A stretch of DNA of 14,674 nucleotides, taken from the NCBI GenBank assembly GCA_049700215.1, contig JBNAVT010000036.1, positions 1 through 14,674 of the forward strand, written 5' to 3'. Position 1 is the first letter of the stretch. Each line of letters opens with the position of its first letter. The notes beneath the pieces were generated by a model, which was not told the DNA's origin, searched no databases, and saw only the letters and a list, made by a program, of their open reading frames with translations. A program made the translations under genes and the position numbers. The stretch is from Thermoproteota archaeon. GTDB taxonomy: Archaea > Thermoproteota > EX4484-205 > JAAOZP01. Of this stretch, positions 1 through 14,674 are shown piece after piece.

Positions 1-480
1 AACCTCCTCTATTTCCTCCCTTCTCCTAAACCTCGGGGGCTTGGCTAGTGGCGGGGGTATTTGAAGAACGTAGTAGGGGGGGATGCCTAGGCCGAACTTG
101 TCCACTAGAACACTGTACCTAGTGATCTTGCTGGCAACCCTGGCCCTGCAGTAGAGCTCAGGATCCAAAGCGTTTTCAGGAGGCACGTATCCCGTTTCAA
201 CCTCGACGACAAGCGTCCCATGGCCCCTGACAGCGTAAACATCGCAGACAAGCCCGCCGCCGAGGTCGTGCTCAACATCAACCTCGTAGCCCTTAAGCAT
301 GAGGTGTTTAGCGCAGACGAGCTCCATCACGGAATGGTTTATCTTCACGAGCCCCTTCTGGCTGAGCTCGATAAGCCTGTTCTTCAGGTTTTCAAGCCCC
401 CTCTTAACATCTTGGTTTACGTTCCTCCCAATCCTGTTAACCAGGGTTTCAACGTCCTCCTCGAACTTGTCTACGGGCAA
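1..480 (-). CDS. Conserved archaeal hypothetical protein with a PD-(D/E)XK nuclease-like motif (partial; 3' end runs off the window)
   Basis: Hand translation, absent from the ORF track: TTG at 480, open to base 1, MPVDKFEEDVETLVNRIG...HSVMELVCAKHLMLKGYEVDVEHDLGGGLVCDVYAVRGHGTLVVEVETGYVPPENALDP... GGAGG SD lies just upstream and a TATA at 508-516. The E...CD...VEVET pattern fits the restriction-endonuclease-like fold. Confidence 0.85.
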   Translation of the reverse strand, partial: MPVDKFEEDVETLVNRIGRNVNQDVKRGLENLKNRLIELSQKGLVKINHSVMELVCAKHLMLKGYEVDVEHDLGGGLVCDVYAVRGHGTLVVEVETGYVPPENALDPELYCRARVASKITRYSVLVDKFGLGIPPYYVLQIPPPLAKPPRFRRREEIEEV

Positions 481-507
481 TTCTCCCTCCCAACCTGTGT
501 CTTACGG

Positions 508-516
508 TTATAAAAA
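508..516 (-). promoter_or_regulatory. TATA box for the <1-480 gene
   Basis: Minus strand reads TTTTTATAA, about 28 nt upstream of the TTG start. Confidence 0.6.
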
Positions 517-567
517 GATTCTGCGGCTGAATCCAGACTTTTAGAGAAGTAACTACAGAATAGGCTC

Positions 568-584
568 CGAAACCCTTTTCTATA
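568..584 (+). promoter_or_regulatory. BRE + TATA-like promoter for the ncRNA candidate
   Basis: CGAAA-CCC-TTTTCTATA, about 22 nt before the 5' end of the closing helix at 605-607. Confidence 0.55.
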
Positions 585-604
585 TTCCACCAGCATACTT
601 CTAC

Positions 605-775
605 AAGCCCGGCGTGGGGAGTAGGCTTGGGCGGGAAGTGGCTGCAAGCCAATCCCGGAAGCAGCCTCCCACCGGTTGCTGGGAGACAACATCAAACAGC
701 AGCTTGGCGGAAGGCAGCGGCTGGGAAAGGCAAACAGCTACAGCTCGTTCAGGCTTAGACCCACCAACCGGGCTT
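605..775 (+). ncRNA. Unassigned structured ncRNA candidate (~170 nt)
   Basis: Ends pair: 605-612/768-775 (8 bp), 614-618/760-764 (5 bp), 622-635/744-757 (14 bp including 5 G-U pairs, which only work on the + strand). Possible internal hairpins at 639-651, 666-685 and 719-739. Promoter upstream, U-tract downstream, no credible ORF. Confidence 0.6.
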
Positions 776-784
776 TCTTTTTTT
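774..784 (+). terminator. Oligo-T archaeal terminator
   Basis: TTTCTTTTTTT directly after the closing stem of the ncRNA candidate. Confidence 0.6.
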
Positions 785-792
785 AAGGCCTC

Positions 793-1614
793 TTAGAAGA
801 GGGATATGCCCCTGGGTAGACTAGCCATCTCACCGTACTGGAAAACCGGGCCGTCTAGACACACATGCTTCCCTCCGAAATGACAGTGCCCGCATTTTCC
901 GATTCCACACCTCATCCTGCTCTCAAGCGAGGCGTAAATATTCTCCTTCGAGTAGCCTAGCTCGACAAGCCTCCTTAAGACGAATCTTATCATGACGGGG
1001 GGGCCGCATGTGCAGACTATTGCCTCAGCCTTGTTGAGCAAAGGCTTTCCAAGTATTGTCGTGACTACCCCAACGCTACCATCCCAGCCCTCCTCCCCCA
1101 CGTCGACAGTCAGGTGGAGCTTCACGCCGCGGCCAGCCCACTCTTCAAACTCATCCCTGTACATGAGTAGTGAGGGCGTTCTCGCACCGTAGCAAACAGC
1201 TATCTCGCCATACTTATCCCTCTCTCCCAGCAGGTGGAGGACGAGGGATCTTAAAGGTGCCAAGCCTATTCCACCCCCCACCATCAGAATATCTCTGCCA
1301 CTCATCTTTTCAACGGGCCAGCCCCGGCCGTAGGGCCCCCTCACGCCAACCTCGTCGCCAACACGGGCTTCGTGAACCATCCTAGTGACGCTACCCATCC
1401 TCCTGATGCTGAACTGCAGATGATCCTTGTCGAAGGGGGAGGAGCATATTGAGAATGGAGCCTCACCCACGCCGTAGACAGTGAGCATCGCGAACTGGCC
1501 TGGCGTGAAGCCTCCGAAATGGTTTGGGCTCAGCGTAACCGTCTTGGTGTCAGGAGCCTCGTCTTTAACCCTGACTATCCTAGCCGGCTTAGGAGCATAA
1601 GGGTTCAGCCCCAT
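793..1614 (-). CDS. flxA: FAD/NAD(P)-binding oxidoreductase with C-terminal [2Fe-2S] cluster (FlxA / AsrB / PyrK-like)
   Basis: PGQF, EAPFSICS, RGPYG, GGGIGLAP, CGPPVM and MRCGIGKCGHC..VCLDGPVF motifs. Start moved from 1674 to the ATG at 1614 (MGLNPY), which has GGAGG at 1625-1629. Confidence 0.9.
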   Translation of the reverse strand: MGLNPYAPKPARIVRVKDEAPDTKTVTLSPNHFGGFTPGQFAMLTVYGVGEAPFSICSSPFDKDHLQFSIRRMGSVTRMVHEARVGDEVGVRGPYGRGWPVEKMSGRDILMVGGGIGLAPLRSLVLHLLGERDKYGEIAVCYGARTPSLLMYRDEFEEWAGRGVKLHLTVDVGEEGWDGSVGVVTTILGKPLLNKAEAIVCTCGPPVMIRFVLRRLVELGYSKENIYASLESRMRCGIGKCGHCHFGGKHVCLDGPVFQYGEMASLPRGISLF

Positions 1615-2627
1615 CTTTTCAAAACCTCCCTTATGTCCACGCCAGTGGGGCAGAGCGAGACGCATCTCCCGCACCCGACGCAGCCGTAGGCGTTGAATGC
1701 GAGCGGGATCCTGCTTAGCTTATGGCAGAACCTGTGGCAGAACCTGTCGACCCTGCTCGCCCTCGGGTCTAGGCCGCTCGCCATCCTTGTGAAGAATGGG
1801 GAGGCACAGGTGTCCCAGCCTTTCGCCCTCACGTAAGCATTCTTCTCTAAATAATCCTCAGTGTCGAAACAGTAGCAGACCGGGCAGACGAATGAGCAGA
1901 GGCTGCACTCCAAACACCTCTGAGCAGCCTGCTGGAAATATTCTTCGCCAAGCTTTTCCTCAAGCTTAACCAGCTGTTCCCCGACTGTTTTAATCCTGCC
2001 CTCCATCTCCCCAGTCAGCCTACGAGACAGTTCTCCATACTCCTCCAAATGCTCAGCACCAGCTTTCTCGAAGAGGCTTCTGAAACCGTTTACTAGAAGC
2101 TTGCCCCTCCCACTCCTCTCCTCAACCAGGAAGCCCCCCGTTATCCGCGTAAGGGTAACATCCTCGCCGGAGCCCCTGACTGGACCCGTTTGGAAAACAT
2201 TGCAGAAACATTCCTCCCCAGGCCTAGCGCAGGAGAGGCTTACGACAGTAGTGCTCATCCTCCTAGACTCGTAGAAGGGGTCTGGGTACGGAGGCTTCAG
2301 CAGAACCTTGTCCAGGACGCTTAAGGCGGAGGCGTCGCACGGCCTGACGGCGAGCAGCACTGTTTCAACGCTTCCCCCAGGCTCCTGGCGGACCCCTGTC
2401 TCAGGATCATGCTTGAAAACCACCTCCCTCTGCGGGATGAAGAAACGCTTCGGGGGCAGCCTCGTATTAGTGTAATCCAGGGAGGCTTCCCTAGCATTTT
2501 TAATGGCTTTGAAGTCGAAGTAGCCGTCTGTCTCAACGGGCGCGATGACTTTTCTACTTGAGACAAGCTCCTCAAGGAGAAGCTTGAAACCGTCTTCACT
2601 TATGAAGAGCATGCTGGCCAGCCTCAA
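1605..2627 (-). CDS. flxB: 4Fe-4S dicluster protein (FlxB / AsrA / sulfhydrogenase beta-like)
   Basis: RPCD, CFC, CLECSLCSFVCPVCYC, WDTC, CVGCGRCVSLCP. TTG start overlaps the upstream TGA (TTGA). Confidence 0.85.
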   Translation of the reverse strand: MRLASMLFISEDGFKLLLEELVSSRKVIAPVETDGYFDFKAIKNAREASLDYTNTRLPPKRFFIPQREVVFKHDPETGVRQEPGGSVETVLLAVRPCDASALSVLDKVLLKPPYPDPFYESRRMSTTVVSLSCARPGEECFCNVFQTGPVRGSGEDVTLTRITGGFLVEERSGRGKLLVNGFRSLFEKAGAEHLEEYGELSRRLTGEMEGRIKTVGEQLVKLEEKLGEEYFQQAAQRCLECSLCSFVCPVCYCFDTEDYLEKNAYVRAKGWDTCASPFFTRMASGLDPRASRVDRFCHRFCHKLSRIPLAFNAYGCVGCGRCVSLCPTGVDIREVLKRWG

Positions 2628-3442
2628 CCACCCTCCTTGAAGACAAGCGCAGGAGGCGCCTCGCCAATCCTGCTCCCTGGAACATAGCCGTAGTTCTCCC
2701 TGAACCAGTGGTTAAGCTCATGGTAAAGCCTTGTCAAAGGGATTTCAACGGGGCAGGCGGATTCGCAAGCGCCGCACTCGACGCAGCGCCCAGCCATGTG
2801 GAGAGCCCTGGTAAGGTGGAACGTGAAAAGCTCCTTGGAATCCCTAAGCCTGTGAACCAGGTCCGGCTTAAAACCTTCTATAGAGCACTCCGTACAGTAG
2901 CAGAGTGGGCATGCTTTAACACACGCTAAGCATTTCAAGCATTTCGCGAACAGGCTCAGCCAGTCTGAAGCATGAGCCGTGGCGCCAGGGGACCCCCCCG
3001 GGGAACTCTGGTCATCGGCCTTCACAAGATAGTCTGCAACAGGCGAAACCCGTGAGACGCATCTCCCACAGTATTCCGCAGGAATGCTCGCGGCGCCGGC
3101 TGAACCGTATTTAACAGGCTTATTGACCCCGGTGCACTCCACAGCTATAACAATAATGTTCTCCCTGTCGACCTGGTTCTCATTCACCAGCTCCACGATG
3201 GATCTTCCGTCGCAACCCTTGGCGACAACCCCAACCCTCCTGCCCCTGAGGCTCCTCAAGTATTTCGCGAGGTTGAACCAGCATTCAGGGTTCCATACGA
3301 GCCTCCCAGCCTCCTCAGGCTTCGAGACGAAGCACGGCCTAACGCTTTTCCCGTAACGCTCATAACCCAAGACCAGCTCGACAACCCTGTTCTCCAAAAG
3401 GCTTCTAGCGATGCTTCTCAAGTCGTCCTCAGCCCTGCTCAA
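2624..3442 (-). CDS. flxC: FdhB/FrhB-like 4Fe-4S protein (FlxC)
   Basis: NLAKYL, KGCDGRSIVEL, CLKCLACVKACPLCYCTEC, HMAGRCVECGACESACP. Position in the operon fits. Confidence 0.85.
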   Translation of the reverse strand: MSRAEDDLRSIARSLLENRVVELVLGYERYGKSVRPCFVSKPEEAGRLVWNPECWFNLAKYLRSLRGRRVGVVAKGCDGRSIVELVNENQVDRENIIVIAVECTGVNKPVKYGSAGAASIPAEYCGRCVSRVSPVADYLVKADDQSSPGGSPGATAHASDWLSLFAKCLKCLACVKACPLCYCTECSIEGFKPDLVHRLRDSKELFTFHLTRALHMAGRCVECGACESACPVEIPLTRLYHELNHWFRENYGYVPGSRIGEAPPALVFKEGG

Positions 3443-3851
3443 CCATCCTCCCCCCTATGTTCAAGGGGCCGAGCCTCTCAACCTCCCCGAGTATTCTTGA
3501 AACCTCTCTGGAGAAGAGGCCTCCCTCGTTAGAAGAGATCCAGAGTATTCTCAGCCTATCCTCCTCAACCCCGATCGTCTTCAAAAGCCTCCTGAGGAGG
3601 CTTACCCTAGCCTCCGTAATCCTGCTCGGCGCAACACTCCTGAGCTCGCTCGGCCTGCAAGCCGTCACCAAGACGGTGTCAGCACCCTTCTCGAAAGCCT
3701 TGACGATCAGGCTCGGGTTGATGATCGCGGAGCAGGGAACCCTGATTGTTAAAAAGTTGGGAGGGTAGGTGAAGCCTTCGAACCCGGCTTGGTCGACACC
3801 GGAGCCTGAACACCAGCATGTGAAAACTATTATCCTAGGCTTCCACGCCAA
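3429..3851 (-). CDS. mvhD: MvhD/FlxD hydrogenase iron-sulfur (delta) subunit, divergent
   Basis: IIVFTCWC..AG...YPPN...IRVPCSA.INP...KAFEKGAD.VLV.AC...GVEEDRLRILWISSNEG..F matches the MvhD/FlpD family. TTG start with GGAGG SD. Confidence 0.88.
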   Translation of the reverse strand: MAWKPRIIVFTCWCSGSGVDQAGFEGFTYPPNFLTIRVPCSAIINPSLIVKAFEKGADTVLVTACRPSELRSVAPSRITEARVSLLRRLLKTIGVEEDRLRILWISSNEGGLFSREVSRILGEVERLGPLNIGGRMVEQG

Positions 3852-3854
3852 AAC

Positions 3855-6800
3855 CTAGTCCTCCAGCATCGCTGAAACCTGGGGGGCGAGCTGCTCCAGA
3901 CCCCAGTTGCCGAGAGTAATCGCTTCCTGGGGGCATGTTGCCAAGCATGCTCCACACCCGTTGCAAACACTCTCTAGAACCCTAACCTTGTCCCCCTCCC
4001 TGACTATGGCGCCGTATTCGCATGAAGACAAGCATCTCCCGCAGCCGGTACACTTCTCCGCAGAGACCTCAGCGGCCTCCGGAAGCCTAAGGCTACTCCT
4101 CCTGAATAGGCTTGTAACCAGCGCGGCTGCGCCACTCCCCTCGACAGCGCTCTCAACAATATCCCTTGGGCCGTGGCATGTGCCGGCGACGAATACTCCC
4201 CTAACCCTTGTTTCAAGCGGCTTCATCTTGGCGTGAGCCTCCTGGATAAACCCGTGCTTATCAACAGTGACGCCGAGCCTCCTGGCGAGCTCAACCATCC
4301 TCCCGGAGGGCTTGAAGCCCAGTGCTAGAACAACCATATCCACCTCCAGCTCGCCCCTCCTGCCTGTTAAAGTATCCTCGTAGACTATCTGAAGATTCCC
4401 GTTTCCAGCCCTCCTTATCTCGGACGGCCTCGACCTTATGAAGACCACACCCTCCTCCAGACACCTCCTGTAGAGAAGATCCTCCCAGCCTTTCCCGAAG
4501 GCCCTCAGCTCGTTGTAGAATATGAAGACCCTGGCCTCCCTGTCGTGCTCAAGGATCAGCCTAGCCTCCTTCATGCTTGCGGCGCAGCAGTAGTATGAGC
4601 ACTCCTCTATGCCTGGTCCAGACTCCCTTGACCCGACGCACTGTATGAAAGCCACCCTCTTAGCAGGCTTCCCATCCCTCCTGAGGAGTACTCCCCCGGT
4701 TGGGCCTGAGGCGCATATTATTCTCTCGAACTCCATGTTTGTTATAACGTTCTCATACTCCCCGTAGTGGTACTCTGGTTTAAGCCTGGGGTTGAAAAGG
4801 TCTGAGCCGACTGCGACAACTATGGCTCCAACGTTCAGCTCAACATTCTTAGGCTCGTCCCCAAGGTTTATCGCTGCCCTGGTGCAAGCCTTCATGCAGA
4901 GCCCGCATTCAACACAGTAATCCATGTTTATCACGTATTTCAATGGTACGGCTTGCGCGAAGGGGCAGTATATTGCTTTAACAGGCTTAAGGTCAGCATC
5001 ATACTTGTTAGGCTGGTAGACGGGGCAGACGTTAACACACTCCCCGCAGCCGTTACACTTGTCAGGATCCACATAAGTAGGGTTAACCCTGACCCTGACC
5101 TTGAAGTCGCCAACCCTACCTTTTACTTCAACAACCTCAGCGTTGGGAATAATAGTAATATTCTTATTCCTGCCTGCTTCAGAGAGGAGTGGACCCTCGA
5201 TACAGTTACTGACCACGAATGCTCCCTTTGGAATAAAACAATGCGTAGGATCCACCGTTATGTCATAGACATAGTCGTCTGTTGAGGGCACTATTCGCAG
5301 TTCCTCAACCCTATCTAAGAAGAATTCTGTTTTGAGAATTCCTTGAAGCTTTATAAAATCAGGGTCATTTCTGACAACGATTCTTTTAACGGCTTTGAGC
5401 ACACGATTCAGGTTTTTAGACGTGATCCTACATTTTTGACGCATAACTCTAATCATGTTTGAGTGAGCAAGTGGAAAAACTCTTAGAGGAATGCGATATC
5501 TTCGTTTAAGATTTGATATCAACCTTCCACATTCCAGAGGCATTTCGTCGAACAATCCGCCGCTTGACTTTCGAAATCTAAGACGTGTGGCGATCCTTCT
5601 TAACCTTAGCGATTTTTCAGGATGGCTGGAACCTACCTTCTTAACAAACCGCAGTACATCCTCGCTGCCCGAAATATCGACTATAACCCTACCTTTGTAT
5701 TCATACACTTTACTTAAAATCCCAAGCCTTTTAAGAAGCAAGTATAACCCGTACCCGTATTCATATTCATCACCGAGTGGGAAACCGATTTTCGCAGCCA
5801 CCCAATTAGGCTTCTCGATTAACACTGCATAACCGTCTCCATCAAAGAAGCCCTTTAAGAATGCTGCAACCAGCTTCTCGTGAAGCCGAAAAACAGGCCT
5901 CAGATCCTCCTTCACCCTCAACTTTTTAGCAAGCTCTGTGAGGATCCTGTTTTTCACCTGAACAACGGTTCTTTTCTTCTGATTTGGACTTTCAGGCTTT
6001 AAGTAGGTAAGGCAGGCAGCTCTGGTTGGAAATATTTCTTTATAGTTCTTCAGAAACAGTTTTATGAGTTGCCTGTTAGTATTATAAAATCTAATTCTTT
6101 CTGCTTCTACACACCCATCGGATGCAACCAACCCAAGAAGATACATTAATTTTTCATTGAGAAACCGGGGCTTAAGACGAATCTTCCCACCAGCTCCTTG
6201 ATACGTAAGTGCACCAACCTTTCTTTTAACTCTATTCCAATCAAAACCCACTGCTTCACAAGCCTTTTTCAGTTCACCTACTGAGAGAAAGTACTCAGTC
6301 CTTTGTAAAACATCATATGGAATGTTCAAGAGTGAGGAAGCGTTCCGCAATGTAGTAAATTTCTCCCTTAACTTATTACGGACTATTCTATTAAGATCGA
6401 TATCAGCAACTTTAAAAGAATCCTCAGGAAGCAGATCAATAATCCATTCTCTTGAGGCTTTAACTTTAAGTTTTCTTGGCGAGTATAGTCTGTCACCTGC
6501 TTTAAGCCGTTCACATTCAATCCAAATAGGACCCCCCGGAGAATCTACTAATATTTTATGATCCCGTGTGAAGCGTAATTTTGCTCCAGTACTGGTTTTA
6601 ACCTCAACCAGCGTTTTTGGAGAAGCTAGTTTTTGAGCGGAGATTATTTTACACTGCTTTAGAGAATGAGAGTTGAAGGAGTATGTTAAAAGCGCATCCC
6701 TATGCGAAGTCCTATTTACATCGGAGAGCTTGCCGACCAGCTCCCTTAAGGTAATGATCGTCCCGTCGTGGAGAATAATCTCAGAGTCACCAGGCATGCA

Positions 6801-7346
6801 TATGGAGCAGTCTAAAGTCGGAAACGTTTTGTCGAGCTGAGCCATCACACCACCTATGCTCGGCTCCTTTTCAACGATGTAGACACGGTAGCCGGCGTCA
6901 GCAATGTCTAGAGCACACCTGACGCCCGCTATGCCTCCCCCTATGACGAGCGCCTCCCTCGTAATCTTCAAACCCTCCACGCCGGGGGGCTGAGACGCGC
7001 GCAGAGCCTTCTGGACACCTCCTTTCACGAGGCGGATTGCCTTTAAAGTCGCCTCCTCCCTGCTTTCGCAAGCCCAGGCGCACTGTTCCCTTATGTTGAC
7101 GAACTCCACTAGACTAGGCTTTCCGAAAACAGCTTCGAGAAGCCTGCTTGAACACGCTGCGACAACAATCCTACCATCATCCCTCAAGCCAAGGTTTTCG
7201 CAAGCGTTTTCCTCGCACAGGCTATCGGTGATTAAAACCCTCCTCACGAGAGGACTGCTGGAAAACACGCTTCTAAGCCTGTCGAAATCAATCTTCTCCA
7301 GCAGGGTTGAGCAGCAGGTGCAGAGCACGACTGTCACACGCCTCAA
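3855..7346 (-). CDS. hdrA: Heterodisulfide reductase subunit A, intein-containing precursor (1163 aa; about 631 aa after splicing)
   Basis: NIREQC, VIGGGIAG FAD motif, QLDKTFPTLDCSI|CI, an inserted ferredoxin domain, MEFER, QCVGSR, CSYYCC..SMK, GVFVAG...GPRDI and a C-terminal 2x[4Fe-4S] domain. Confidence 0.96.
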   Translation of the reverse strand: MRRVTVVLCTCCSTLLEKIDFDRLRSVFSSSPLVRRVLITDSLCEENACENLGLRDDGRIVVAACSSRLLEAVFGKPSLVEFVNIREQCAWACESREEATLKAIRLVKGGVQKALRASQPPGVEGLKITREALVIGGGIAGVRCALDIADAGYRVYIVEKEPSIGGVMAQLDKTFPTLDCSICMPGDSEIILHDGTIITLRELVGKLSDVNRTSHRDALLTYSFNSHSLKQCKIISAQKLASPKTLVEVKTSTGAKLRFTRDHKILVDSPGGPIWIECERLKAGDRLYSPRKLKVKASREWIIDLLPEDSFKVADIDLNRIVRNKLREKFTTLRNASSLLNIPYDVLQRTEYFLSVGELKKACEAVGFDWNRVKRKVGALTYQGAGGKIRLKPRFLNEKLMYLLGLVASDGCVEAERIRFYNTNRQLIKLFLKNYKEIFPTRAACLTYLKPESPNQKKRTVVQVKNRILTELAKKLRVKEDLRPVFRLHEKLVAAFLKGFFDGDGYAVLIEKPNWVAAKIGFPLGDEYEYGYGLYLLLKRLGILSKVYEYKGRVIVDISGSEDVLRFVKKVGSSHPEKSLRLRRIATRLRFRKSSGGLFDEMPLECGRLISNLKRRYRIPLRVFPLAHSNMIRVMRQKCRITSKNLNRVLKAVKRIVVRNDPDFIKLQGILKTEFFLDRVEELRIVPSTDDYVYDITVDPTHCFIPKGAFVVSNCIEGPLLSEAGRNKNITIIPNAEVVEVKGRVGDFKVRVRVNPTYVDPDKCNGCGECVNVCPVYQPNKYDADLKPVKAIYCPFAQAVPLKYVINMDYCVECGLCMKACTRAAINLGDEPKNVELNVGAIVVAVGSDLFNPRLKPEYHYGEYENVITNMEFERIICASGPTGGVLLRRDGKPAKRVAFIQCVGSRESGPGIEECSYYCCAASMKEARLILEHDREARVFIFYNELRAFGKGWEDLLYRRCLEEGVVFIRSRPSEIRRAGNGNLQIVYEDTLTGRRGELEVDMVVLALGFKPSGRMVELARRLGVTVDKHGFIQEAHAKMKPLETRVRGVFVAGTCHGPRDIVESAVEGSGAAALVTSLFRRSSLRLPEAAEVSAEKCTGCGRCLSSCEYGAIVREGDKVRVLESVCNGCGACLATCPQEAITLGNWGLEQLAPQVSAMLED
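5205..6800 (-). mobile_element. Intein (532 aa, residues 183-714) with LAGLIDADG homing endonuclease
   Basis: Block A CMPGDSEI, block B TRDH, LAGLIDADG motifs LLGLVASDG (~6113-6140) and FLKGFFDGDG (~5833-5862), block F YVYDITVDPTHCF, block G VVSN followed by Cys+1. Removing it restores FPTLDCSICIEGP. Markedly AT-richer than the flanks. Confidence 0.96.
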
Positions 7347-8092
7347 CGCTTAACCATCCTCCTGAGCAGGGCCTCCGGGAAGCCTGCCTGCGCCGGGTCT
7401 AAGCCGAGTGAGAAGGCTGAAAGCTGAGCAAGGTGTAGAACAGGAATATTGCTGACAGGGCTTAGGCGAAGCATGCAGTGCGAGCATGTTGCGACAATAC
7501 AGTCGGCCCCAGCCTTCTCCGCCGAGCCAGCCTTCACCCTAGCCATCTCCCCGCCAATGTTCTCACCCGTCAGGAACCCGCCGCAACAGTCGAGCTCACG
7601 CTCATAGGGTACGGGGAGGAACCCGAGCATCTCGAGAACACTTTTAACAATCTTAGGGTCCTCAGGATTATCCAAGCCCCTGCCTGAGGGCCTTAGAAAA
7701 CGGCAGCTGTGCTGGACAGCACACCTTAAACCCGTGAAGCCGAGCCGCGGCTTAACCTCCCTCAGCCTCTCCAGCAGCAAAGCTTGGAAAGGCTTCACTT
7801 CAGGAGGCTTCACACCATTCCTGCCGGCTAAAACCCTGAAGGCATCGCTCAGGCTTGCGAAACAATCGTCGCAAGCGGTGACGACAGTACTGTTGAAAAG
7901 CCTCATGTTCCTCTCGTTAAGCCTGAGCCAAGCCTCCCTGCTAAGGGAGAAAAACCAGGAGGGGGCGCAGCAGGATGCCTCCGTCTTATCCTCGAACGAG
8001 ACACCAAGCCTGCTGAGAGTCTCCTTAACAGCCTTCTCAACCTCGGGGTGAACAGCCCTTATGACGCAGCCAGGGTAAAGGGCTAGGCTCAT
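7343..8092 (-). CDS. hdrB: Heterodisulfide reductase subunit B (two CCG domains)
   Basis: YPGC..ASCCAP..TACDDC and HSCRFLRP..DNPEDP..DCCGG..ATCSHC..IPVLHLAQL. Confidence 0.92.
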   Translation of the reverse strand: MSLALYPGCVIRAVHPEVEKAVKETLSRLGVSFEDKTEASCCAPSWFFSLSREAWLRLNERNMRLFNSTVVTACDDCFASLSDAFRVLAGRNGVKPPEVKPFQALLLERLREVKPRLGFTGLRCAVQHSCRFLRPSGRGLDNPEDPKIVKSVLEMLGFLPVPYERELDCCGGFLTGENIGGEMARVKAGSAEKAGADCIVATCSHCMLRLSPVSNIPVLHLAQLSAFSLGLDPAQAGFPEALLRRMVKR

Positions 8093-8535
8093 TTGAAACC
8101 CGCCTCCGAGAGGATCCTCCTCACCTCTCTTAAACCCTCTGCGCCCAGCCCCGCGTCAGGCAGCCCCAGGAGCCTCCTCCTCTCACGGGACTCCAGGGTG
8201 GGCGGGAAGGCTAAACCGGTTTCCTTAACCTGCTCAACCATCTTAAGGACTTCCTCGGGAGCCTTGCCCCCGTTTTCATAAAGGACTGCTCTCAAAACCA
8301 GGATTATGCTTAAAGGGTCAACACCCTGAGGGCATCTTTCAGAGCAGAGGGAGCAGGTTGAGCAGAGCCACGGGTCCTGGTCCGGAATCCTGTTGAACCT
8401 GGATAAGGAGCCGACTATCCTGCGCGGGTTGAAACCCTCCTGTATGCGGTTCACGGGGCAGGCGGAGGTGCATGAGCCGCACTGCACGCATTTAAGAGGG
8501 TTCCCAGCTTCCTTCTCCCTCAGCGTTTCAATCAA
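8089..8535 (-). CDS. hdrC: Heterodisulfide reductase subunit C
   Basis: CVQCGSCTSACP, FNPRRI, WLCSTCSLCSERCPQGV, RRRLLGLP. Stop overlaps the hdrB ATG (ATGA). Confidence 0.92.
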   Translation of the reverse strand: MIETLREKEAGNPLKCVQCGSCTSACPVNRIQEGFNPRRIVGSLSRFNRIPDQDPWLCSTCSLCSERCPQGVDPLSIILVLRAVLYENGGKAPEEVLKMVEQVKETGLAFPPTLESRERRRLLGLPDAGLGAEGLREVRRILSEAGFK

Positions 8536-8571
8536 GCCTCGGCTTACCCTTTCCTAACCCGGTTCAAACCT

Positions 8572-8655: not shown

Positions 8656-9788
8656 TCAATACGGCGCGTTGAATATTGTTGCCGCAATATGCCTGACACC
8701 GCCTTCGCAGTCAACAGTGTCGCCAGCCTTGTTGAAATAGTAGACTGCGAGAACCCTTCCATCCGGGAGAAGCACTGTGCGTGGATAACCCAGGTCAGGG
8801 CTGCCCCCGTCGTCGCGCAGAACTATCTCCCTCCCCATGTCTCCCCACCGTCGCCGCTGATCCTGGCACGCACCCCGTAGGGTGGAACCCTGTAGCCGTA
8901 CGTGCAAAGAAGCCTTCCGTCTTTAAGCGTTTGGAGCGCCGCTGGAGCACCCCAATCGTTAACCCTAGATTGGAAACGCCAGGTTAACCCCCCGTCCTCG
9001 GAAACATATGTTTCAGTCCAGTGCAGCCTCCAGTCGGGCCATACTGTTCTAAGGGCAGTGATAATCCTGCCGTCCGGGAGAACAGCAGGGTGGGGACATA
9101 TCTTAGGAGGGTGAGAATCCTCCGGCGTAACATAGCTTAGGAAACACCAGCTGACAGCGCCGTCCGTGCTCGCCAAAACCATTGGCCTCCCCTCGGGAAA
9201 AATTCCGCGCGCAGCCTCGTCGAAACGCTTTCCCTGGACAAACCATAGCAAGACACCGTCTGAGCGAACAATGTACGAGGGCCGGGCTTAAATAGTTTCA
9301 AACACGGGGTTGAAGAGCAGGTGTGGACCCTCCCATGAATAACCCTTGTCACGCGTTACAAAGTATGCTGTCGGGCCAGTCTCGTTTCCAAGAGGGGTTT
9401 CAACAGCTAAAGCTGAACCAGGCTTCGAGAAGTCCACCGGCCTCGGCTTAGGTAAGGGGCTATCAGACGGAGGATAGTGAAGAACCTTCGCGCGCAGCTC
9501 AGCCTTGCTCTCCACGATCACTCTAAGGCCTTCAACAGGCCAGGTGCGGCCACCATCCTTTGAACGAAGCGTGACAAGCTGGCCGGCTCCCAGCTGAACC
9601 CTACTGTGCTCAACATCCCTGGGAGACACGTATGCGCACTTGTTACGGTTGAAGCCTACGAGTATCTCGCCCTCTCCGAAGCTTCATAGCCCCCCGTTGA
9701 AAGGCCACCCAGCATACTCGTCACCCCTATGGTAGACAGTCACGTGTTCAGCATCCTCCAGCCTAACCGGGTTCCTACGGCTAGCCAT
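8656..9788 (-). pseudogene. BNR/Asp-box (exo-alpha-sialidase-like) beta-propeller protein, disrupted
   Basis: ATG 9788 MASRRNPVRLEDAEHVTVYH..AGWPFNGGL*SFGEGEILVGF. In-frame TGA at 9684-9686, in-frame TAA at 9288-9290 and a 1-nt frameshift at the G-run 8833-8836. Five Asp-boxes: SKDGGRTW, TRDKGYSW, STDGAVSW, SEDGGLTW, SGDGGETW. Ends DLGYP..VLLPDG..LAVYY. Confidence 0.85.
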
Positions 9789-9906: not shown

Positions 9907-11085
9907 CTAGTACTCGGCGACAAGCCACACCGTGGAACCCTTGCCCACAGCTATCCTAAGCGTGCCAAGCGGGTCCTCCAGGGTTCTCCAAGAATTCTTA
10001 ACCACTCTGAAAGCCTCTTCTACAAAATTCCCCTCCAAATGCTCCTTCACGCTAACCGCCTGCTGAACACTAACCGTCAGCGTTTTCCTAGACGGGCATG
10101 ATACTCCGAGCATCATCCTCCTAGCCCCCAGGAGATCATAGAGGGGAGGATTCCTAGTAGTCTTGTCGTCGAAAACCAGCTTGTCGAACATCCTCCCGTA
10201 GGCCCTGGCGTCGAAAATATTGAAGCCCGGCTCCCAAACCCAGATCTCATGCCTCCACTGCCTGCTGTAGTCTAAAACTGGAAACGGGGGCGCGTGAGAC
10301 ATGAAGAAGCTGAAAAGAACCTTAGGCTTCCCATCCGGGCCTGTGGTGAAAGAAGGATGACCAAGGTTGCTGTAGCCATCGTTGAAAGGCACGGGCAGGC
10401 TTGCGCTCAAGCCCCTGACGTTGGGAGCCAAGTAGGATCCGCACATAGCTATCCGCGACCTCCAGTTCTGCCTGTCGGTGAAGTACTCTACTAAGACTCC
10501 GAACCTGTCGTTAGTCCTGAAAGCGTCTATAACATCGTTAGAACCCTCCCAGTTGGAGAAAACTGTTTCTCCACCTAGCTCCAGCGAGCTCAAGTCGTCA
10601 ACACGCTTCACAAGCCTCCAGAGAATCCTGTCATCCTTCGGGTAGAATATTGCCGCATTAGGGTTCTGCTCGCTATAGTTTCCCATCAGGCTGAGGATAC
10701 CGGCTCCAGAATCCTGCATCCCGTCGAGCAGCTTCCTTGAACCAAGCTCCCTAAAGCCTTTGTCGAAAAACCTGATGTGCAACGGGCCGCCTTCAGTAGT
10801 TAAAACGATGAAACCATCCCTCCAAGGATCGTAAATCGCGTTGACAGCATCCCTCGTAGGCGGCGACGACAGTATCCTCCTGACCCTGCTTACCGTCATA
10901 TCCTTTTCAACCTCGGCGGAAAAGACTTCTCTAGAGTTAGCGTTCCTCCAGCCGGTGAAGAAGAGAAGCCAGCCTCCAGTCTCAGGGTCGTAAACCATTC
11001 TCGGAGTCCCCACGCCTCCAGCAAAATCAGGAATACTATTCTTATACTGGGAAGGAACTATCCAAGGGTAGATTCTTCCAGCCAT
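9907..11085 (-). CDS. Hypothetical protein, possible five-bladed beta-propeller glycoside hydrolase-like
   Basis: 392-aa ORF with host-like codon use and its own TATA. Blade-like segments GTPRMVYDPETGGWLLFFTG, NAIYDPWRDGFIVLT and GHPSF..GPDGKPKVLFS. Function is inferred only. Confidence 0.75.
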   Translation of the reverse strand: MAGRIYPWIVPSQYKNSIPDFAGGVGTPRMVYDPETGGWLLFFTGWRNANSREVFSAEVEKDMTVSRVRRILSSPPTRDAVNAIYDPWRDGFIVLTTEGGPLHIRFFDKGFRELGSRKLLDGMQDSGAGILSLMGNYSEQNPNAAIFYPKDDRILWRLVKRVDDLSSLELGGETVFSNWEGSNDVIDAFRTNDRFGVLVEYFTDRQNWRSRIAMCGSYLAPNVRGLSASLPVPFNDGYSNLGHPSFTTGPDGKPKVLFSFFMSHAPPFPVLDYSRQWRHEIWVWEPGFNIFDARAYGRMFDKLVFDDKTTRNPPLYDLLGARRMMLGVSCPSRKTLTVSVQQAVSVKEHLEGNFVEEAFRVVKNSWRTLEDPLGTLRIAVGKGSTVWLVAEY

Positions 11086-11110
11086 TACAATGCTTTAAGC
11101 GTTTGAACGC

Positions 11111-11120
11111 TATATAAAAG
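11111..11120 (-). promoter_or_regulatory. TATA box for the 9907-11085 gene (likely leaderless)
   Basis: Minus strand CTTTTATATA, 26 nt upstream of ATG 11085. Confidence 0.65.
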
Positions 11121-11157
11121 TAACGCGCAGCGGAGGAAAACGGGGAAAGTCTTAAGG

Positions 11158-11166
11158 TTAATATAT
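11158..11166 (+). promoter_or_regulatory. TATA box for anmK (likely leaderless)
   Basis: TTAATATAT ending about 22 nt before ATG 11188. Confidence 0.6.
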
Positions 11167-11187
11167 CTAACAAGCTCCGCCACAATC

Positions 11188-12393
11188 ATGGGGCCTGGCC
11201 CACTGGCGAGAAGGCTCGTCGACAAGATTTTTTCCGAGGAAAGGGTTGTAGCTGGGCTCATGTCTGGAACAAGCGCTGACGGTGTTGACATAGTGATCGT
11301 AAAGATAAGGGGCTTCGGAAGAGATGTTAAGTATGAGGTTCTCCACAAGGATACTGTCCCATACCCCGGCGAGTTAAAGAGATACATACTGGATTCTGTT
11401 GAACAAGGCTCCGTCAGAGACGTATGCCTCTTGAACCACCTTGTTTCTGAAGCATTCTCCGACGCGTTGAAGAACTCTCTAGGGGCATCGAGGATTTCCC
11501 TGAACGATATTGACCTAGTAGGGTCGCACGGTCAGACACTGCATCATTTTCCAGAATACGTTTCCGTAGGAGGCTTTTCAAGCAGGTGTTCCCTACAACT
11601 CGGCTCTGTTCAAGTCATAGCTGAGAGAACCGGTTTAACAACCATCGGAAACTTCAGGGCTAGAGATATTGCTGCCGGCGGACAGGGAGCCCCCATAATA
11701 GCCTACGTGGATTACTCTCTCCTCTCAGACCCCGTGAAGGGGAGGCTTGTTCAGAACATAGGAGGCATAGCCAACGTAACAGTTCTCCCGAGAAACCCTG
11801 AAACCAAGGATGTCTACGCTTTCGACACGGGACCTGGGAACAGCCTGATAGACTTTACGGTTGGAATGCTCTACCCGGAGCTGCCTCACGACCCTGGTGG
11901 CGAGATTGCTTCAAAAGGATCCTGCGACGAAGAAATTTTAAGAGGGCTTATGGCTCACGAGTATATCACTAGACCTCCTCCTAAAACAACCGGGAGAGAG
12001 GTTTTCAGCAGGTCTTTCGCAAAGAGGATTATTGAGAAGGGGCTTGGCAAAGGCTTGTCTAAGGAGGACCTGGTTGCCACCGTGACGATGTTCACGGTGA
12101 AGAGCATCGTTAAAAACTACGACCTCTTCATACTGCCTAAAACCAGGGTTGAAGAGGTTATCGTTGGGGGAGGAGGAGTCAGGAACAAGACTCTCATGAA
12201 GCATTTCGAGGAGGAATTGAGAAGGAGAGGCCTAAGAATGCTTAAACACGAGGATGTGGGGATCGACTCGAAGGTTAAGGAGGCTCTCGGAATGGCTATA
12301 CTGGCCCACGCGACTTTAAGCGGGGTTCCTAACAATATACCTGGGGCTACGGGAGCGGAGAGGAGCGTCGTCATGGGGGAGATAGCGCTATAG
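11188..12393 (+). CDS. anmK: Anhydro-N-acetylmuramic acid kinase
   Basis: GLMSGTSADGVD, GSHGQT, FRARDIAAGGQGAP, NIGGIAN, FDTGPGN, PPKTTGRE, GGGGVRN, KEA, GATGA. Confidence 0.95.
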   Translation: MGPGPLARRLVDKIFSEERVVAGLMSGTSADGVDIVIVKIRGFGRDVKYEVLHKDTVPYPGELKRYILDSVEQGSVRDVCLLNHLVSEAFSDALKNSLGASRISLNDIDLVGSHGQTLHHFPEYVSVGGFSSRCSLQLGSVQVIAERTGLTTIGNFRARDIAAGGQGAPIIAYVDYSLLSDPVKGRLVQNIGGIANVTVLPRNPETKDVYAFDTGPGNSLIDFTVGMLYPELPHDPGGEIASKGSCDEEILRGLMAHEYITRPPPKTTGREVFSRSFAKRIIEKGLGKGLSKEDLVATVTMFTVKSIVKNYDLFILPKTRVEEVIVGGGGVRNKTLMKHFEEELRRRGLRMLKHEDVGIDSKVKEALGMAILAHATLSGVPNNIPGATGAERSVVMGEIAL

Positions 12394-13470
12394 GGAGGAT
12401 ACTAGCAGGTTGTGGAAAACTGGTCTAAACCTCATTATCTTGGTGTTCCCCCTGCTTGGGTGAACCCTGTTGCTTAAGAGGACGGCGACAACCCTCTGCC
12501 CAGCATCTATGCATATCGAGGTGCCTGTGAAACCCGTGTGGCAGAAAGCATCTCCATCCGTAAACAGGTCGCCGAAAGCCTGTGAAACCGTCTTCCTGTA
12601 AACCTGCCACCCCAGCCCGTAGCAGTAATCGCCATCCGCCCAGGGCCTAAGCATCGTCGCCGCGGTAGCCTTTTTAACGAGACGGTCACTCCTGCCTAAA
12701 TATGCTTGCAGCATCTCGTTCCCTATTAACGCCACCTCCCTTGCTGTTGAAAACAATCCCGCGTGGCCCGAAAGGCCTTCCAGCGCCCTTGCATTCTCAT
12801 CGTGGACAACCCCCCTCAGGGGGAAACCGGTTCCAGGATCGATCTCCGTCGACGCAACCTGGTTTTCGGCGAAACCATGGTTCAAAGGATTGTAAACAGT
12901 CTTCCTCAAGCCCAGAGGCCTTGCGACAAGCTTCTCGAAAAGACTGTCGATCCTTTCACCAGTAATGCTTTCCACCAGCGCGGTGAGAACAATGTAGCCG
13001 ATGTCGCTGTAGATAACCCTCGACCCGGGTGGAAGGCTGACGAAGGATCTCGCAGCCTCCTCGAAGAGCCCAACCCTGCTTTTCTCCCCAAGCTTGTAAA
13101 GCGGAGCCCAAGCTGGGAGACCGGCTGAATGGGAGAGCAGCATCCATATTTCAGTCCTACTTTTAAACTCATCCTGCCCCGCGTTAGTCTCAGAATACTC
13201 AGGCAACACTTCTGAAACCCTCTGCTTCAAATGCAGGAGACCCTCTTCCAGAAGCCTTGCGACGATGATCGACGTTGCGAGAGGCTTAGTGAGGGAGGCA
13301 AGATCGTAAAGCGTCTCCACCGATGCTTCTCTCCTCTCCGGGGTCGCTTCAGCGTATCCGAAAGCCTCCTCGTAGACGAGATCATCATCCAGATAAACAG
13401 CTACTGAAGCCCCTGGGAAAACGTCTTCGACAGCATTAGCGAGAGCCATCCTCAGATTGTTAAACTTCAT
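12388..13470 (-). CDS. Serine hydrolase, beta-lactamase/class C family (AmiE/YbbE-like candidate)
   Basis: YDLASLTK (SxxK), LLSHSAGL, YSDIGY, GVVHDENA...GLSGHAGLFS, HTGFTGTS, LSNRVHP. No obvious signal peptide. Confidence 0.9.
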   Translation of the reverse strand: MKFNNLRMALANAVEDVFPGASVAVYLDDDLVYEEAFGYAEATPERREASVETLYDLASLTKPLATSIIVARLLEEGLLHLKQRVSEVLPEYSETNAGQDEFKSRTEIWMLLSHSAGLPAWAPLYKLGEKSRVGLFEEAARSFVSLPPGSRVIYSDIGYIVLTALVESITGERIDSLFEKLVARPLGLRKTVYNPLNHGFAENQVASTEIDPGTGFPLRGVVHDENARALEGLSGHAGLFSTAREVALIGNEMLQAYLGRSDRLVKKATAATMLRPWADGDYCYGLGWQVYRKTVSQAFGDLFTDGDAFCHTGFTGTSICIDAGQRVVAVLLSNRVHPSRGNTKIMRFRPVFHNLLVSSL

Positions 13471-13603
13471 TCCAAGTCTTAGATTCTATCTACTACCTCA
13501 TTTATATGTTTAAAGTTCTAGTTTCCGTATGCTTGTCTTCAAACAACAGAGCCTATTTCGCCATGCGAAAAGACTGTTAAACTCAGGTTATATGAGTTTT
13601 TTA

Positions 13604-14608
13604 TCACTGAGGATTAAAGCAGGCGACAAAATGATGGTTTCGAAGCTCTACTAAAGAAGGATTTTGCTTACTGCATTTCTCTGTTCGGAATGGGCAGCGC
13701 GGATGGAATCTACATCCTCTGGGAGGATCTATGGCACTCGCTATCTCCCCTGAGGCACTAAACATCTTCTTAGAATGATCGCCAAATCCTAGGCTTGCTG
13801 AAGCCGATAGGAGGAGTTGTGAATAGGGATGAAACTGGTGACTAATGAAATCTTCCGTAGGCGCCATCTCCATTATTTTTCCAAGGTACATAACTATTAT
13901 CCTGTCGCAAGAGTAATATGCCACTCCAAGATCATGGGTCGTAAGCAAATACGTTAAGCCGTATTGTTTTTTCAATTCCATCAAAAGATTAAGAACACCC
14001 GACCTGATGCTGAGGTCAAGCATTGAGACAGGCTCGTCCGCTATAAGAAAACGCGGCTTAACAGCAAGCGCTCTAGCTATCGAAACTCTTTGTCTCTCGC
14101 CTCCGCTCAATTCATGTGGATACTTGTATAAAACATCTTCGGAAAGACCTACATGCCTCAACAGTTCGCCGCAGTACTCCCTAATCTCATCCTTATCTTT
14201 CACGATGTTTTGGACTCGCAACGGAAACGCTATTGTTGAGAAAACTGTCAACCTAGGATTTAATGATTCATAAGGGTCTTGAAAGACCATCTGAACTATC
14301 CTCCTGTACTCCTTCAGATCTTTACCGCGGAAAGAAGAAATATCTCTTCCGTTGAACAGAACTTTCCCCCCAGTGGGAGGGGTAAGCTTCGCAATAACTT
14401 TCCCGATCGTGGTCTTACCGCTTCCACTTTCCCCTACAAGTCCCACAACCTCGCCAGAATCTATATAGAAAGACACATCATCCACTGCATGGACGTATTT
14501 CCTATGGAATAAATCGCCCGTTCTGGCGGGGAAATATACTTTTAGGTTTTCGATTTCAAACAGATGGGAGCTCTCGCTGAAAGTATTGGTATTCAGCGCT
14601 TCCATCAT
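13604..14608 (-). CDS. oppF: Oligopeptide/dipeptide-family ABC transporter ATP-binding subunit
   Basis: GESGSGKT Walker A, QMVFQDP, LSGGERQR, ADEP, THD and the C-terminal PPRGCRFHPRCP..C..HFVAC. Start set at ATG 14608 (or 14605), overlapping the upstream TGA. Confidence 0.93.
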   Translation of the reverse strand: MMEALNTNTFSESSHLFEIENLKVYFPARTGDLFHRKYVHAVDDVSFYIDSGEVVGLVGESGSGKTTIGKVIAKLTPPTGGKVLFNGRDISSFRGKDLKEYRRIVQMVFQDPYESLNPRLTVFSTIAFPLRVQNIVKDKDEIREYCGELLRHVGLSEDVLYKYPHELSGGERQRVSIARALAVKPRFLIADEPVSMLDLSIRSGVLNLLMELKKQYGLTYLLTTHDLGVAYYSCDRIIVMYLGKIMEMAPTEDFISHQFHPYSQLLLSASASLGFGDHSKKMFSASGEIASAIDPPRGCRFHPRCPFRTEKCSKQNPSLVELRNHHFVACFNPQ

Positions 14609-14674
14609 GAAACCACGTTGTGACAAGCAACATAGTGGCCAAGCTCTATTTCGATTAACTCCGGCTTCTCGTAG
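14605..14674 (-). CDS. oppD: C-terminal end of the upstream ABC ATP-binding subunit (partial)
   Basis: Hand translation YEKPELIEIELGHYVACHNVVS*, a typical OppD/DppD oligo-HPY tail. Stop 14605-14607 is coupled to the oppF ATG. Confidence 0.8.
   Translation of the reverse strand, partial: YEKPELIEIELGHYVACHNVVS

Follow-up and report, generated by a model that had tools for sequence, protein, structure and literature searches.

Why should a gene for an HdrA-like protein encode 532 additional amino acids (aa) placed directly in front of one of its conserved cysteines? The question is raised by contig JBNAVT010000036.1 of a Thermoproteota archaeon (assembly GCA_049700215.1), the 14,674 nucleotides of which were analysed in full and are referred to here as the window. 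Its reverse strand carries an hdrA-like precursor open reading frame (ORF; 3855..7346) that is open over 1163 aa and consists of an N-extein of 182 aa, an intein of 532 aa and a C-extein of 449 aa followed by the stop. The intein architecture observed here is far beyond chance, and we put a probability of about 90% on the insert being a class-1 intein with a LAGLIDADG homing endonuclease, in frame in the hdrA-like gene, with splicing and homing inferred.

The insert in the hdrA-like gene

All parts of the gene lie on the reverse strand. The N-extein (6801..7346) comprises the HdrA N-terminal Fe-S domain and the start of the flavin adenine dinucleotide (FAD)-binding, thioredoxin-reductase-like domain; it aligns to residues 62-198 of the HdrA chain 5odc_A, matches FAD-binding Pfam families at residues 131-170 and ends in KTFPTLDCSI, with its Cys180 at position -3 relative to the splice junction. 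The intein (5205..6800; ORF residues 183-714) runs from CMPGDSE to FVVSN, the codon of its Cys1 being TGC at 6798-6800 and that of its C-terminal Asn lying at 5205-5207. The C-extein (3855..5204) starts with CIEGPLL, its Cys+1 encoded by TGT at 5202-5204, and contains the inserted ferredoxin, the CxGxRE...CSxxCC motif, the remaining FAD domain and a C-terminal 2x[4Fe-4S] ferredoxin. The junction reads D-C-S-I|C (the bar marks the insertion point), and the insert directly precedes the second cysteine of the conserved DCSxC motif in the FAD (thioredoxin-reductase-like) domain. Pfam recognizes Intein_splicing (PF14890) across residues 190-710 with 47.7 bits against a cutoff of 35.8, and LAGLIDADG_3 (PF14528) across residues 493-572 with 56.5 bits against a cutoff of 22.5. 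In base composition, the insert is foreign to its host gene, with a G+C content (GC) of 0.41 against 0.55 in the exteins and a third-position GC (GC3) of 0.39 against 0.63-0.64.

The host protein is recognizable as HdrA on both sides of the insert. Its best match among solved structures is 5odc_A (E 2.4e-148), in an alignment of two stretches, residues 62-199 and 197-652, that abut at the insertion point. The N-terminal Cys domain, the FAD domain with DCSxC, the ferredoxin domains and CxGxR[DE]...CSxxCC are all present, and the HdrA motif cysteines are invariant in an alignment of 18 full-length intein-bearing HdrA proteins, from which the residue counts below are taken together with a 56-row alignment of wider relatives. 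Against the NCBIfam model HdrA2 (cutoff 1100), the C-extein alone, which is only part of the protein, scores 487 bits. Methanogen HdrA (M. thermolithotrophicus 5ODC; M. maripaludis 9SFI) resembles the window protein in domain order, cofactor motifs and DCSxC but has no intein, and its partners are encoded by mvh/vhu hydrogenase genes rather than the flx-like genes of the window locus; in the C-extein, the methanogen proteins are about 42-48% identical to most of the genome loci listed.

Cys+1 aligns with Cys197 of 5odc_A and with the X at residue 197 of 9sfi_A. The latter belongs to the M. maripaludis Hdr-Vhu-Fwd model, in which, according to passages of PMC13518236, Sec197/U197 (a selenocysteine, Sec) and a cysteine form a pair located between cluster A3 and FAD. 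According to a comparative-genomics study (PMC9012536), Cys197, which lies in the thioredoxin-reductase domain, serves as a ligand to the N-terminal Fe-S cluster of the partner HdrA protomer. After splicing, Cys+1 would take this Cys197/Sec197 position. A first-pass annotation had placed a 532-aa intein at KTFPTLDCSI|C, named the second cysteine of the motif as the Cys+1 nucleophile, and described it as Sec in some Methanococcales HdrA and as implicated in Fe-S ligation; ORF mapping and Pfam bear out the length and the exact site, the position of the junction agrees with the nucleophile residue, and the alignments to X197 of 9sfi_A (PMC13518236) and to the cluster ligand Cys197 of 5odc_A (PMC9012536) confirm the other two points.

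The splicing residues of the insert are strongly conserved. Cys1 (Cys183 of the ORF) is invariant in 18/18 HdrA inteins and in 56/56 rows of the wider alignment, as are the Thr and His of block B, TxxH (T260-R-D-H263; 6558..6569), in the 18 proteins and the wider set. Blocks F and G (VYDITVDPTHCFIPKGAFVVSN; 5205..5270) contain the invariant residues Asp695, His702, Ser713 and Asn714, of which we assigned D695 to the assisting Asp F:4 and H702 to His F:13 following the numbering of PMC4031507. Asn714|Cys715 represents the C-terminal Asn followed by Cys+1, the former invariant in the 56-row alignment and the latter in 18/18. Every class-1 splicing residue is present in the window copy except the penultimate His.

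Two LAGLIDADG motifs lie between the splicing blocks: YLLGLVASDG (6114..6143), upstream of the Pfam LAGLIDADG_3 match, and AFLKGFFDGDG (5832..5864), within it. Both end in Asp-Gly in the window copy, and we take Asp410 and Asp504 to be the catalytic Asp residues of the endonuclease. Both are kept in 11/18 HdrA inteins, the window's included, and one or both are lost in the other 7/18 (P0008, P0010, P0012, P0016, P0019, P0021 and P0024); P0010 and P0024 have additional deletions of 64-73 aa in the endonuclease region, with the splicing residues all retained. Such a mixture of intact and decayed endonucleases is the decay pattern expected of a homing cycle.

An AlphaFold2 model of the intein, built on the 56-row alignment, reached a predicted local distance difference test score (pLDDT) of 95.0 and a predicted template modelling score (pTM) of 0.93. 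The best Foldseek matches of this predicted structure are 7qss (E 1.4e-20), 2cw7 (E 1.5e-20) and 1dq3 (E 1.1e-16), with PI-SceI also found, and its modelled endonuclease core resembles I-DmoI and I-Tsp061I. An intein-only sequence search of solved structures, by comparison, gave marginal matches only, with E 1e-3 or worse (phmmer, about 1e-3 to 1e-2). TliVMA (7QSS), PI-TkoII (2CW7) and PI-PfuI (1DQ3) share with the HdrA intein a Hint domain split by a two-motif LAGLIDADG core, extra helical DNA-binding-type domains, the class-1 type, Cys1 and a terminal Asn (TM 0.55-0.75), but they are only 15-17% identical to it, occupy another host gene and site, and have a penultimate His where the HdrA intein has Ser.

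Distribution, relatives and empty alleles

Searching a set of 5.8 billion proteins with the intein only, we obtained 81 hits among 8000 scored candidates, 21 of which, the window's own protein included, are HdrA-like proteins interrupted by the intein at DCS[IA]|C. The identical site is therefore occupied in 20 further public protein clusters, which come from other contigs and sources; the DCS[IA]|C junction is present in all 19 copies that reach that far, and P0015, P0017 and P0020 are truncated among the 21. Their sources include a JGI entry named 'heterodisulfide reductase subunit A-like polyferredoxin/intein/homing endonuclease' and proteins from metagenome-assembled genomes (MAGs) of Caldarchaeum, Hermodarchaeota and Bathyarchaeia. 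One copy appears in an NCBI record as 'LAGLIDADG family homing endonuclease', and intein-bearing genes of this kind are easily mis-called in annotation. When the 18-protein alignment was used as a profile, the best 120 of 7653 HdrA-like hits contained no new intein-bearing HdrA cluster; 16 rows bearing PF14890, all already known, stood at the top, which makes the element rare among HdrA proteins. A plasmid search with the intein gave no match, and a phage search gave one weak match, within the gene for the anaerobic ribonucleotide reductase of an Aeromonas phage, where 59% of the query aligns at 27% identity.

The wider family extends well beyond HdrA. A scan of 1.84 billion representatives returned 640 hits at E<=1e-3, 196 at <=1e-10 and 33 at <=1e-30. 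Below two HdrA representatives and P0023, whose host is a NiFe-hydrogenase/NuoD-type large subunit, the next 31 proteins were scanned for host Pfam domains: the intein lies in MCM in eight, in a thiamine pyrophosphate (TPP) enzyme of OFOR beta type in seven, in Cbf5/TruB and in ACS/CODH in four each, in a NuoD/NiFe-hydrogenase large subunit and in A-type ATPase B in two each, and in NuoB, Topo VI B and a radical SAM protein once each; the remaining protein is a fragment without a host domain. POR alpha and a nitroreductase are also among the hosts of these relatives. The nearest non-HdrA relatives (P0022-P0071, P0203-P0233) share 27-38% identity with the HdrA intein over all 532 aa and are placed immediately ahead of a Cys, with junctions RICGI|C in NiFe-hydrogenase/NuoD, |CNGC in NuoB, |CYDNEAY in the TPP/OFOR beta proteins, DMTNY|CEALRE in ATPase B, and PMT[AS]|CGCFEC and SCTL|CQSF in ACS. 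Several of these junction cysteines are presumably metal ligands. Most of the related inteins, including those in other energy enzymes and Cbf5, also share the Ser-Asn end before Cys+1; they differ in host gene and fall outside the HdrA inteins, which form one clade in a 28-row intein tree (support 99, starred). Inteins are generally concentrated in replication proteins; the present lineage looks like one that favours cysteine sites of anaerobic energy enzymes.

A candidate second HdrA intein site, at which the C-extein is split by 1.3-1.4 kb in two genome loci (L071 and L077), was rejected, as the translated insert is a flavoprotein domain and not an intein. This domain of about 450 aa lies inside the HdrA ferredoxin insert in L071 (9361-12735, a Dehalococcoidia MAG) and L077 (6066-8840, an archaeal MAG) and, by reading of its sequence, resembles the glutamate-synthase small subunit or NfnB.

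How new is the HdrA intein? We found no description of one in the main texts of open-access papers, in line with the first-pass annotation, which knew of no characterised example; the single paper with both 'intein' and 'HdrA' in its main text mentions, in the passages concerned, an intein in ribonucleotide reductase only. The claim of a new insertion site does not hold up, since the same site is already present in the 20 other public clusters, one of them auto-annotated as HdrA with intein. That of a new host class was overstated: other enzymes of energy metabolism are the hosts of the nearest non-HdrA relatives, and an intein has already been published for the O2-labile oxidoreductase MoaA (PMC10663303). 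The element is a LAGLIDADG intein of ordinary kind at a host site undescribed in the main texts of open-access papers, with its sequences already public. HdrA, the flavin subunit of heterodisulfide-reductase-type electron bifurcation, joins the list of intein hosts, and the insertion falls at the single cysteine position that some methanogens fill with Sec and that bridges the clusters of two protomers. Together with the sister inteins in hydrogenase, ACS, NuoB, OFOR and A-ATPase B, it indicates that inteins are common in core energy enzymes of uncultured anaerobic archaea.

Intein-free alleles, which the first-pass annotation had proposed to look for, do exist. The closest of at least 80 genome loci (L001), in a Candidatus Brockarchaeota MAG, is collinear with positions 1-5204 and 6796-8552 of the window at 67-71% nucleotide identity in the flanks, with the insert precisely absent; across the empty site, its protein reads DKTFPTLDCSI-CIEGPLLSE. 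Closer still is P0083, an intein-free protein of 631 aa on a 154-kb contig, the exteins of which are 96.7% and 98.7% identical to those of the window. In a search restricted to shorter proteins we found 22 more full-length intein-free proteins with C-exteins 81-93% identical, and some of the intein-free relatives are named as Thermoproteota, Thaumarchaeota or Crenarchaeota MAG proteins.

An extein tree was built on 44 rows, of which 18 have the intein and 26 do not; P0002 (the window's own protein), the truncated P0015, P0017 and P0020, the partial P0106 and P0107, and all proteins below P0110 are not included. On it, the presence of the intein requires 8 changes, at least 7 of which are forced by well-supported (starred) branches. 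Near-identical groups are mixed: the window and P0006 have the intein and P0083 does not, P0011 has it and P0108 does not, and P0003 has it and P0100 does not. The distances between inteins do not follow those between hosts either. The window and P0006, with exteins 96-99% identical overall and a C-extein 99% identical, have inteins that are 75% identical, whereas P0003 and P0006 are 84% identical in the C-extein and 87% in the intein; a clade of the window with P0006 is rejected on the intein alignment by an approximately unbiased (AU) test (p 8e-7), for a pair that was named after the identity table had been seen. Three allelic states are thereby found in near-identical hosts, namely the window intein, the divergent P0006 intein and the empty P0083, and they offer a test bed for homing dynamics. 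In the simplest reading, to which these patterns point, related populations have repeatedly gained, lost and replaced the intein through homing.

The residue after Cys+1 also differs between the two kinds of allele. Codon +2 (5199-5201) encodes Ile in 21/21 intein-bearing HdrA clusters, and the residue is Val in 11/26 close intein-free proteins, P0083 included; as 9/11 belong to one near-identical clade, these make only about three independent lineages. Target variants that resist the endonuclease, or a constraint imposed by splicing, could account for this pattern.

Splicing, homing and competing explanations

In the mechanism that we propose, which follows the usual four-step route, Cys1 would form a thioester after translation, Cys+1, the equivalent of HdrA Cys197/Sec197, would attack it, and cyclisation of the intein's Asn532 would leave the exteins joined as an intact HdrA of 631 aa, which would then be ready to bind FAD and Fe-S clusters and to dimerise. 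Because the insertion stands at the Cys197 equivalent and the two cysteines of DCSxC are 532 residues apart in the precursor, maturation of this allele would have to pass through splicing before FAD and Fe-S loading and dimerisation, and active enzyme should be obtained from it only afterwards. The first-pass annotation had made assembly of the enzyme strictly dependent on splicing, which is a fair inference for this allele; as a general statement it is undercut by the intein-free alleles with 97-99% identical exteins. In the genome, the endonuclease would cut an intein-free hdrA at the same site and the intein would be copied in by repair, and homing of this kind would explain the patchiness among near-identical hosts.

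Several points weigh against this account. Splicing and DNA cleavage are both read from sequence alone. The contig covers only 14.7 kb, so a second, intein-free hdrA could lie elsewhere in the genome. None of the 80 loci listed (at least 80 in all) from a species-representative genome scan (GTDB) contains the intein. The trees are quick ones whose support comes only from the Shimodaira-Hasegawa-like approximate likelihood-ratio test (SH-aLRT), and the conflict between them could partly stem from old intein lineages reshuffled by recombination and not from recent homing. Finally, the penultimate residue (G:6) is Ser713 and not His, and Ser occupies this position in 21/21 HdrA copies. A penultimate His is helpful to splicing and not obligatory, and splicing without it is reportedly the subject of papers listed in PMC4031507. 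Its usual part, described in passages of PMC4031507, is to assist Asn cyclisation.

The missing His is also what speaks for a non-splicing insert, that is, a decayed intein or intein-like domain that has turned this hdrA copy into a pseudogene or a protein with another role. We regard this as very improbable: the 1163-codon frame is open, the exteins are still 97-99% identical to intein-free alleles, and all other splicing residues are invariant across inteins down to 39% identity. The Ser-Asn end is moreover common to most related inteins in other essential hosts, where it would not persist if it abolished splicing. A chimeric assembly or mis-join at 5205/6800, a possibility raised in the first-pass annotation, would account for the sharp drop in GC inside the insert, but both junctions are in frame and on exact intein boundaries, 20 other clusters have the same architecture and junctions, and the flanks are collinear with L001, which together reduce the chance of an artefact to almost nothing.

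A different objection grants an intein and denies its mobility. If the element were fixed baggage, inherited only vertically with a dead endonuclease, its patchiness would have to come from precise losses alone. The intein tree does roughly follow host clades at deep levels, motif Asp residues are lost in 7/18 copies, two of them with deletions, and the HdrA inteins form a single clade (99, starred), so that there is no ongoing transfer from other host genes. Yet both Asp residues are intact in the window copy and 10 others, and in three pairs or triples of near-identical hosts some members have the intein and others lack it. Within the closest clade, inteins and exteins give conflicting distances, the AU test rejects the host-like grouping, and the GC3 of 0.39 in the intein contrasts with 0.63 in the host gene. 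We consider immobility improbable on this evidence, and mobility by homing the better account.

Could the intein act as a redox switch in addition? Here, a disulfide between Cys-3 and Cys1 (C-S-I-C) would block the first splicing step when oxidised, and an oxygen-sensitive flavo-iron-sulfur enzyme would mature only in a reduced cell; this would add to splicing and homing and not replace them. The junction has the required CxxC in the window (D-C-S-I|C) and in all 19 copies that reach it (DCS[IA]|C), and related inteins have the same geometry in NiFe-hydrogenase/NuoD (RICGI|C) and at one ACS site (SCTL|C). The precedent is the MoaA intein of P. abyssi, in which, as PMC10663303 describes with reference to Callahan 2011, a disulfide between an N-extein Cys and Cys1 blocks splicing until conditions are reducing. 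The two cases are alike in their O2-labile oxidoreductase host, anaerobic archaeal setting and N-extein Cys near Cys1 and differ in host protein and in evidence, redox control having been shown for MoaA and the HdrA junction being known from sequence. However, a junction CxxC arises automatically whenever a Cys1 intein precedes the second Cys of a host CxxC, with no selection needed, and the existence of intein-free alleles in hosts that are nearly identical speaks for the element being dispensable to its host. A switch is therefore a tentative and rather unlikely addition, although the junction offers a testable case of redox-conditional splicing.

An extension of this idea, equally speculative, would have a whole lineage of large, Ser-Asn-ended archaeal inteins specialised to sites before metal-ligand or redox cysteines of oxygen-sensitive, anaerobic energy enzymes, with splicing as a redox checkpoint; the sites in question are HdrA DCSx|C, NiFe-hydrogenase/NuoD RICGx|C, ACS |CGC and SCTL|C, and NuoB |CNGC. 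If it were true, a precursor in which Cys1 restores a CxxC with Cys-3 of the extein and which is held by a disulfide until the cell is reduced would constitute a checkpoint before cofactor insertion in an electron-bifurcating complex.

Gene neighbourhood and the rest of the window

The intein-bearing gene stands in a row of genes on one strand (793-8535, −), with hdrC- and hdrB-like genes upstream and mvhD- and flx-like genes downstream. The hdrC-like gene (8089..8535) scores 78 bits with TIGR03290, below its cutoff, and the hdrB-like gene (7343..8092) has two CCG domains (Pfam CCG, 4e-25), with TIGR03288 likewise below cutoff. Downstream, an mvhD/flxD-like gene (3429..3851) carries a FlpD domain (Pfam FlpD, 1.9e-31). 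It is followed by three genes that fall below equivalog cutoffs: flxC-like, named for its domain content, with 2x[4Fe-4S] (2624-3442), flxB-like, with Fer4_22 and ShyB/HydB/AsrA-like (1605-2627), and flxA-like, with FAD/NAD-binding and 2Fe-2S domains and ShyC/HydG/AsrB-like (793-1674). By analogy, we name this an hdrCBA-mvhD-flxCBA-type cluster with putative subunits.

The FlxABCD-HdrABC NADH dehydrogenase/heterodisulfide reductase of the sulfate reducer Desulfovibrio, reportedly the subject of work by Ramos et al. in 2015, has the same ingredients on one strand, namely hdrC, hdrB, hdrA, an MvhD-like gene, two Fe-S proteins and an FAD/NAD-binding protein. It differs in that the window host is archaeal, with the order hdrCBA-flxDCBA, and in that the window subunits are assigned by domain content only. 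Domain scans of the window proteins revealed no hydrogenase genes at the locus, and 'Hdr-Mvh', the structure to which the first-pass annotation referred, does not describe it: the enzyme belongs to the flx-type cluster of a probably Brockarchaeota-like archaeon and not to a methanogen Mvh-Hdr. On the evidence of its nearest relatives only, the host is probably a member of the TACK archaea and most likely resembles Brockarchaeota.

No tRNA and no Rfam family was found in the whole window. ORFs of 392, 100 and 160 aa at 9907-11387 (−) and 1-480 (−) have no Pfam or NCBIfam match. A BNR/sialidase-like beta-propeller gene at 8656-9683 (−) is apparently broken: an in-frame TAA at 9288-9290 parts two pieces in the same frame, and an additional, third piece (8656-8922), read in a different frame, overlaps the second of them. 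Either the gene is a pseudogene or the assembly is in error.

At the far end of the window, 11188-14674, an anhydro-N-acetylmuramic acid kinase (438.8 against an NCBIfam cutoff of 387) adjoins a PBP4B-like serine hydrolase and an OppF/DppF-like peptide ABC ATPase. This set of genes is odd for an archaeal contig and might reflect scavenging of bacterial cell-wall fragments or gene transfer. The GC content falls to 0.41-0.46 over 13501-14500.

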